Below, one piece after another: positions 118 through 218 of a stretch of DNA of 218 nt. Each line of letters opens with the position of its first letter. The first letter of the stretch is position 1. Position numbers and translations under genes: made by a program. Where the stretch lies: the sequence record J02446.1. One strand, written 5' to 3'. Origin of the DNA: a phage. The notes beneath the pieces are model-generated. The model saw nothing but the letters and a program-made list of their open reading frames with translations. It was not told where the DNA came from and ran no database searches.

Positions 118-129
118 CCCCGGATGGGG
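118..129 (+). other. Short GC hairpin CCCC-GGAU-GGGG
   Basis: 118-121 CCCC pairs with 126-129 GGGG; 4-nt loop GGAU. It sits immediately 5' of the GGGUGGG tract, in the same order as a C-run/G-run hairpin I recall in the MS2 3' UTR. Alternative pairings of the G-run are possible. Confidence 0.35.
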
Positions 130-134
130 TGGGT

Positions 135-150
135 GGGACCGAAAGGTTCC
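135..150 (+). other. Hairpin with GNRA (GAAA) tetraloop
   Basis: 135-140 GGGACC pairs with 145-150 GGUUCC (6 bp, G137-U148 wobble); loop 141-144 GAAA. Its 5' arm is part of the GGGUGGGACC motif. Confidence 0.55.
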
Positions 151-153
151 TAT

Positions 154-168
154 GGAGGTGAATCCTCC
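154..168 (+). other. Hairpin GGAGG-UGAAU-CCUCC containing a Shine-Dalgarno-like GGAGGUGA
   Basis: 154-158 GGAGG pairs with 164-168 CCUCC. GGAGGUGA (154-161) is perfectly complementary to the 16S rRNA 3' end, but no ATG/GTG/TTG lies 4-12 nt downstream. Confidence 0.45.
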
Positions 169-183
169 CGCCCGTGAAGGCGG
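168..183 (+). other. GC-rich hairpin CCGCC-CGUGAA-GGCGG
   Basis: 168-172 CCGCC pairs with 179-183 GGCGG (5 bp, 6-nt loop). It shares C168 with the previous hairpin. Its position, penultimate to the terminal hairpin, parallels a short GC hairpin I recall in MS2 (CGGGA-UUC-UCCCG). Confidence 0.45.
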
Positions 184-188
184 TTTAA

Positions 189-211
189 TGACTAGTTTGC
201 TTGGCTAGTCA
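189..211 (+). promoter_or_regulatory. 3'-terminal hairpin (9 bp, loop UGCUU); candidate replicase recognition element next to the minus-strand start site
   Basis: 189-197 UGACUAGUU pairs with 203-211 GGCUAGUCA, including two U-G wobbles (196-204, 197-203). Loop is 198-202 UGCUU. The loop-plus-3'-arm sequence UGCUUGGCUAGU matches the recalled MS2 terminal hairpin. No U-tract follows, so it is not an intrinsic terminator. Confidence 0.6.
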
Positions 212-218
212 CCACCCA
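212..218 (+). promoter_or_regulatory. Single-stranded 3' tail CCACCCA (levivirus-type genome terminus; the final A is normally non-templated)
   Basis: The window ends exactly in CCACCCA, identical to the recalled MS2 3' tail. The tail is complementary to internal UGGGUGG at 130-136. Confidence 0.5.

Follow-up and report, generated by a model that had tools for sequence, protein, structure and literature searches.

The window analyzed here, that is, the entire 218-nt stretch of DNA, is almost certainly the 3'-terminal portion of the genome of a genogroup II F-specific RNA coliphage, a member of Emesvirus japonicum (family Fiersviridae) from the GA/KU1/BZ13 lineage. There is similarly little doubt that the sequence is a DNA-letter copy of the end of a plus-strand RNA genome, which comprises the last 33 codons of the replicase gene, the tandem stop codons UGA-UAG and a 115-nt 3' untranslated region (UTR). 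Nothing that contradicts this identification was found. The 3' end of group II genomes is already known, and the 3' domain of RNA coliphages has long been studied; the window is best annotated as group II (GA/KU1/BZ13-like) rather than as MS2-type.

A blastn search with the window against 50,697 phage records yielded six matches that span its full length and are collinear with it, so that the whole window, and not just its end, matches the 3' termini of group II genomes. The closest sequences are those of BZ13 T72 (94.1% identity) and KU1 (93.6%), followed by BZ13 DL10 (91.4%), BZ13 DL20 (90.5%) and two GA records (89.2%), with E-values between 1e-76 and 1e-87 for the group II matches. The BZ13, KU1 and GA records are all classified as Emesvirus japonicum, Fiersviridae. 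Each of the six alignments stops at the final base of the respective record, in agreement with the proposal of the initial annotation that the window is the 3' end of an RNA phage genome. Furthermore, the final 30 nt are identical to those of the window in all five group II genomes, and this identity, together with the E-values for the whole window, puts the resemblance of the terminal 30 nt far beyond chance. Because the window and its relatives share the terminal base, base 218 would be the physical end of the single-stranded RNA genome. The relatives have genomes of 3.4-3.5 kb that encode maturation, coat, lysis and replicase genes; the source record of the window consists of the 218 nt only. 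The UTRs of the group II phages show 88.6-94.6% identity to that of the window, which is nearest to the KU1/T72 sub-lineage within the group.

The initial annotation, made from the letters alone, interpreted the last 30 nt as an MS2-type genome terminus and took the window to come from a relative of MS2 rather than from MS2 itself. Both parts of this interpretation hold. The terminal segment, UGACUAGUUUGCUUGGCUAGUCACCACCCA, is composed of a hairpin at 189-211 and the CCACCCA tail at 212-218, and the MS2 terminus that it gave for comparison, UAACUAGCUGCUUGGCUAGUUACCACCCA, is exactly the final 29 nt of NC_001417.2 by direct comparison. When the window is aligned to the 3' end of MS2 (NC_001417), the two termini resemble each other as described, with the UGCUUGG loop, the 3' arm and the ACCACCCA tail otherwise the same. 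The differences had been noted as consistent with a paired stem, and the A to G change at position 190 and the U to C change at position 210 indeed involve pairing partners and convert an A-U pair to a G-C pair; the remaining differences are one substitution and a one-base insertion at the edge of the loop (196-197). That the window actually represents the 3' end of MS2 or another genogroup I phage (Emesvirus zinderi) is nevertheless extremely improbable. The terminal 30 nt are 93.5% identical to MS2-like records, and the tail and loop are those of MS2, but in the blastn search the group I records align with the window over positions 189-218 only, leaving the other 188 nt unaligned. In addition, the UTR of the window is 115 nt long, compared to 171 nt in MS2 and 176 nt in fr, and the C-terminus of the encoded replicase differs from the genogroup I sequences at most positions.

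Positions 1-103 of the window, on the plus strand as are all features described below, hold the end of the gene for the replicase (RNA-directed RNA polymerase beta subunit), which is identified by translation, stop codon alignment and a peptide match. The window opens on the third base of a codon, and codons 2-100 encode the 33 residues ETLSSARFRCKPNSEWRTQIPLFPQEVEACVLS. The stop codon UGA (101-103), which is followed by UAG (104-106), aligns with the annotated replicase stops of BZ13, KU1 and GA. The C-termini of group II replicases have the same amino acid at 30-32 of these 33 positions, and the corresponding regions of MS2 and fr are quite different. An exact-sequence lookup in NCBI nr identified the peptide as the replicase fragment P09674.1 of Swiss-Prot (33 aa, "RNA-directed RNA polymerase beta chain"), which shares a 90% cluster with the replicases of GA, KU1 and BZ13; an exact-product lookup among products encoded on contigs gave no match to the 33-aa peptide. 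The match to P09674.1 implies that the window corresponds to a curated 3'-terminal fragment of a group II genome, deposited long ago as a partial sequence from a phage in culture. Older taxids within the species belong to JP34, TH1 and BO1, one of which may be the source strain; JP34 (Adhin et al. 1989) is a plausible candidate. The concern, voiced in the initial annotation, that an origin from a DNA assembly would be unexpected is therefore not applicable. The tandem stop codons are contained within a predicted hairpin at 99-113 (CCUGAU-AGU-AUCAGG, minimum free energy [MFE] fold). All six base pairs of this hairpin are invariant in the six group II sequences, so that it provides no covariation information. 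An out-of-frame ORF at positions 46-177 (43 aa) was considered as a gene and rejected: it is interrupted, at differing places, in KU1, GA, DL10 and DL20.

An entirely different interpretation would be that the window represents a small RNA, self-replicating or defective, that arose from the 3' end of a phage and is not a piece of a full genome. Variant RNAs replicated by the Qbeta replicase are roughly 220 nt long, and both the 218-nt length, which is that of the record itself, and the very stable fold of the window (z = -5.85) superficially resemble such molecules. Several features of the window are at odds with this possibility and render it most improbable. The window is collinear with full genomes throughout, without any rearrangement, and starts mid-codon in an intact replicase frame. 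Its 5' start, UGAAAC, is not G-rich as required for initiation at a 3' CCA of the complementary strand, and the encoded peptide is catalogued as a replicase fragment.

The chances appear equally slim that the window stems from a DNA genome, for example as a terminator, a CCA-ending tRNA-like gene, a small RNA or a CRISPR repeat, or that it contaminated a DNA assembly. An Rfam search at a permissive threshold did return matches on the minus strand, namely cow-rumen-2 (20.5 bits, compared to a gathering score of 66) and CRISPR-DR15 (13 bits), but all of these are below threshold, with no family reaching its gathering score, and they are probably due to chance. The cow-rumen-2 match covers window positions 127-216 on the minus strand (E = 0.098) and is driven by the complement of the terminal hairpin and the neighboring hairpins. 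ARAGORN detected no tRNA or tmRNA genes in the window, and a scan for promoter-like or terminator-like sites in the window found none; the terminal hairpin is followed by ACCACCCA and not by a run of U, contrary to what a terminator would look like. Two query patterns, the terminal motif and a 26-mer from an invariant internal segment, were also run against contig collections. In the viral contig collection, GA itself was the sole match to either sequence, and the metagenome contig collection contained no match to the terminal motif or the 26-mer. The genome contig collection yielded a single 19-nt match to the terminal motif, in a metagenome-assembled genome (MAG) of Granulicella, which could be taken to support an origin from a DNA genome; the similarity stops after these 19 nt, and in 6e11 bases chance alone should produce several such matches.

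Within the genogroup II genome end, the most prominent element is the terminal hairpin U1 at 189-211, which is supported by the predicted fold, by conservation and by compensatory changes. Its stem can be written as UGACUAG(UU)/(GG)CUAGUCA, with a loop that contains UGCUU. When folded alone, the last 30 nt form nine base pairs (189-197 with 203-211), of which seven are Watson-Crick and two are G.U, leaving the 7-nt tail unpaired; this structure has an energy of -10.4 kcal/mol (z = -3.0), a stability that 200 shuffled sequences all failed to reach. The loop region is UUUGCUUGG, and the UGCUU loop feature, which is conserved in single-stranded RNA phages (PMC3561173), is present at 189-211. Comparison of group II with MS2 and fr reveals compensatory changes at two positions of the stem. 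The loop-tip motif GCUUGGC is located at positions 199-205, and the general form of this motif, GCUUNGC, is found at a distance of 20-21 nt from the 3' end in each of the seven full genomes checked, in five of which it is the sole copy.

The 3' UTR, the 115-nt 3'-terminal domain at 104-218, extends downstream of the replicase stop and is 115-119 nt long in the relatives; the whole window folds with an energy of -98.8 kcal/mol (the z-score given above being relative to shuffled sequences). In the 3' domain of Leviviridae, the long-distance interaction ld IX bridges the very 3' end to an upstream stretch, and U1 is the terminal hairpin (PMC3561173). In the window, the predicted ld IX involves GGGUGG at 131-136, the 5' arm, and CCACCC at 212-217, the 3' arm within the CCACCCA tail (212-218), and would close a domain consisting of three small hairpins and U1, with the terminal A at 218. 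This pairing is found in both the MFE and the centroid folds. The pairing probability of the ACCC tail with the upstream G-tract is 0.98 in the partition-function fold of the window. Moreover, among 15 UTRs from relatives with replicase identities as low as 49%, 14 contain the UGGGU core, which is complementary to ACCCA; the chance expectation is approximately 0.12 per UTR.

The first of the three enclosed hairpins, at 137-148 (GACC-GAAA-GGUU, predicted by folding), directly follows the ld IX arm and has a tetraloop of the GNRA type; equivalent GAAA-loop hairpins are located after the G-tract in MS2, fr and DL52. The second one, at 154-168 (GGAGG-UGAAU-CCUCC, also from the fold), holds the sole compensatory change within group II, from A-U to G-C. 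The third hairpin, at 169-182 (CGCC-CGUGAA-GGCG), is supported by the fold and by strain comparison: its loop is CGUGAA in the window, GUAA in T72, UUUAUU in KU1 and CAAAA in GA, DL10 and DL20, with the stem retained. In the alignment, a single-stranded linker, UUUAAU (183-188), separates this hairpin from U1. Covariation statistics within group II are uninformative given that neither U1 nor ld IX varies and the other helices offer a single compensatory pair. Levivirus genogroups I and II have ACCACCCA as their 3' signature (PMC3499819); this sequence occupies positions 211-218 of the window, and every full-length relative ends with it. The termini of three BZ13 records and of DL52 were obtained by primer walking and might be influenced by the primers (PMC3499819). 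The GA and KU1 sequences come from other laboratories than the BZ13 and DL52 records.

The only structural peculiarity of the window is the lack of two G residues immediately before U1. Comparison of ...GGCGGUUUAAGGUGACUAG... in KU1 with ...GGCGGUUUAAUGACUAG... in the window reveals a clean 2-nt deletion at the junction UUUAA|UGACUAG (183-189), which reads ...UUUAAGGUGACUAG... with the GG and ...UUUAAUGACUAG... without it. The window has AA-UGACUAG at this position; GG-UGACUAG or GG-UAACUAG is present in all 10 relatives that reach it (the five group II records, MS2, fr, DL52, a wild group II contig from ENA and a Logan relative with 54% identity). The resulting GG:CC extension at the base of U1, which is conserved in the relatives albeit not a published defining feature, is absent from the window, which leaves its U1 with 2 bp fewer than is usual in the family.

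Partition-function folds indicate that these two bases could affect the partner choice of the tail. In sequences with the GG, the latter pairs with CC 212-213 at a probability of 1.00, giving a U1 of 11 bp, and the ld IX pairing of the tail is weak (0.00-0.31 in the relatives). Without the GG, that is, in the window and in T72 after in silico removal of the GG, the pairing of the tail with the ld IX G-tract rises to 0.82-0.98; conversely, when the GG is put back into the window in silico, CC 212-213 returns to U1. The missing GG could be a genuine property of the strain, which would then be a natural mutant with its 3' end engaged only in ld IX, but this appears rather unlikely. A compression or editing error in the old sequence is the more likely explanation, favored by the strict conservation of the GG elsewhere. 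If the deletion is real, the strain would offer a ready test of whether competition of the U1 extension with ld IX has consequences for the access of the replicase or the binding of the maturation protein; in either case, the missing GG is worth flagging for those who use the record as a structural reference.

The terminal elements are missing from relatives assembled from metatranscriptomes. None of these has a complete terminus, every assembly stopping at or before U1, which suggests that the terminal hairpin and tail are systematically lost in assemblies. For example, the ENA contig ERZ21844407 ends at position 3425, exactly at the GG before U1, and the Logan contig from SRR24706665 ends at 3458, at GGUGAC. 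Three other sequences, NC_073941.1 (ssRNA phage AVE017; 3470-3483) and two Logan contigs (3451-3473 and 3259-3282), end in AGATCGGAAGAGC..., which looks like Illumina adapter sequence. Being adapter-like, these apparent 3' ends would be library artefacts and not genome termini. Given that modern assemblies lose the terminal hairpin, the old, directly sequenced termini remain the reference.

The functional roles of the group II 3' end can be proposed by analogy with MS2, Qbeta and AP205. Plus-strand replication starts at the 3' end, where the penultimate C is the initiation site and the terminal A is non-templated (PMC10610835). By analogy, the replicase holoenzyme would take the CCA-3' end of the group II genome into its active site and begin the minus strand at the penultimate C, and the terminal A would be added without a template. 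According to Klovins and van Duin (1999), cited in PMC3561173, the replication of Qbeta depends on a pseudoknot between the U1 loop and a sequence approximately 1200 nt upstream. The U1 loop of the group II phages, UUGCUUG, might likewise pair with CAAGCAA located about 1.26 kb upstream, in the replicase gene, to form a pseudoknot of the Qbeta type that would be needed for replication. The CAAGCAA sequence is part of a conserved CAAGCAACCG block. Its distance from the 3' end is 1263-1267 nt in each of the five group II genomes, 1312 nt in DL52 and 1358 nt in MS2. In the replicase genes of relatives from both genogroups, the block maps to positions 2130-2139, 2220-2229, 2199-2208 and 2211-2220. 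The CAAGCAACCG block can be considered a candidate partner of the U1 loop and fits the pseudoknot model, but because the block is also coding, its conservation is no proof of the pseudoknot.

Structural information on virions suggests a second role for U1. In the MS2 virion, stem-loop 40, which bears the highest MS2 number in the review, contacts the maturation protein, and the 3' end adjoins that protein (PMC10610835); in AP205, the last stem-loop is clamped by the maturation protein via the loop-tip motif GCUUXGC (PMC10980823). In group II virions, the maturation protein may similarly hold the U1 loop tip GCUUGGC, in which case the 3' end would exit the capsid first at infection.

Among the characterized phages, the window is most similar to KU1 (AF227250) and BZ13 T72 (FJ483838), with which it shares the stop position, the UTR architecture and length (115-118 nt), U1 and the tail. 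The differences from each of these two sequences amount to 14 substitutions, another loop in the hairpin at 169-182, the GG deletion in the window, and an Ile to Leu change at residue 3 of the replicase fragment. The group II prototype, GA (NC_001426/X03869), is also collinear and co-terminal with the window and has the same stop, U1 and tail, but belongs to the other group II sub-lineage, together with DL10 and DL20. The ld IX arm of GA is GGGUGU instead of GGGUGG, its counterpart of the hairpin at 137-148 differs, and its CAAAA-loop hairpin is longer.

At a greater distance, MS2 (NC_001417, Emesvirus zinderi, genogroup I) has in common with the window a U1 with the UGCUUGG loop and the ACCACCCA tail; it also resembles group II in that its ld IX arm, GGGGUGGGUG, precedes a hairpin with a GAAA loop and in that the CAAGCAACCG complement is present upstream. 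MS2 differs from the window in its 171-nt UTR with more hairpins, a compensatory pair in the U1 stem and a different replicase C-terminus, and shows no detectable nucleotide similarity beyond the last 30 nt. A mixed case is the MS2-like isolate DL52 (JQ966307, 3493-3525), which is classed in genogroup I but has a U1 3' arm of the group II type, UAGUCACC rather than UAGUUACC; its replicase ends in ...ELS, resembling the ...VLS of group II. Both features fit the published proposal of a recombinant replicase and 3' region. Finally, the 3' domain of Qbeta and stem-loop 88 of AP205 are similar to the window in containing UGCUU/GCUUNGC approximately 20 nt from the CCA-3' end (PMC3561173, PMC10980823). 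These phages belong to other genera and have unrelated flanking sequences, and it is from them that the functions are known.
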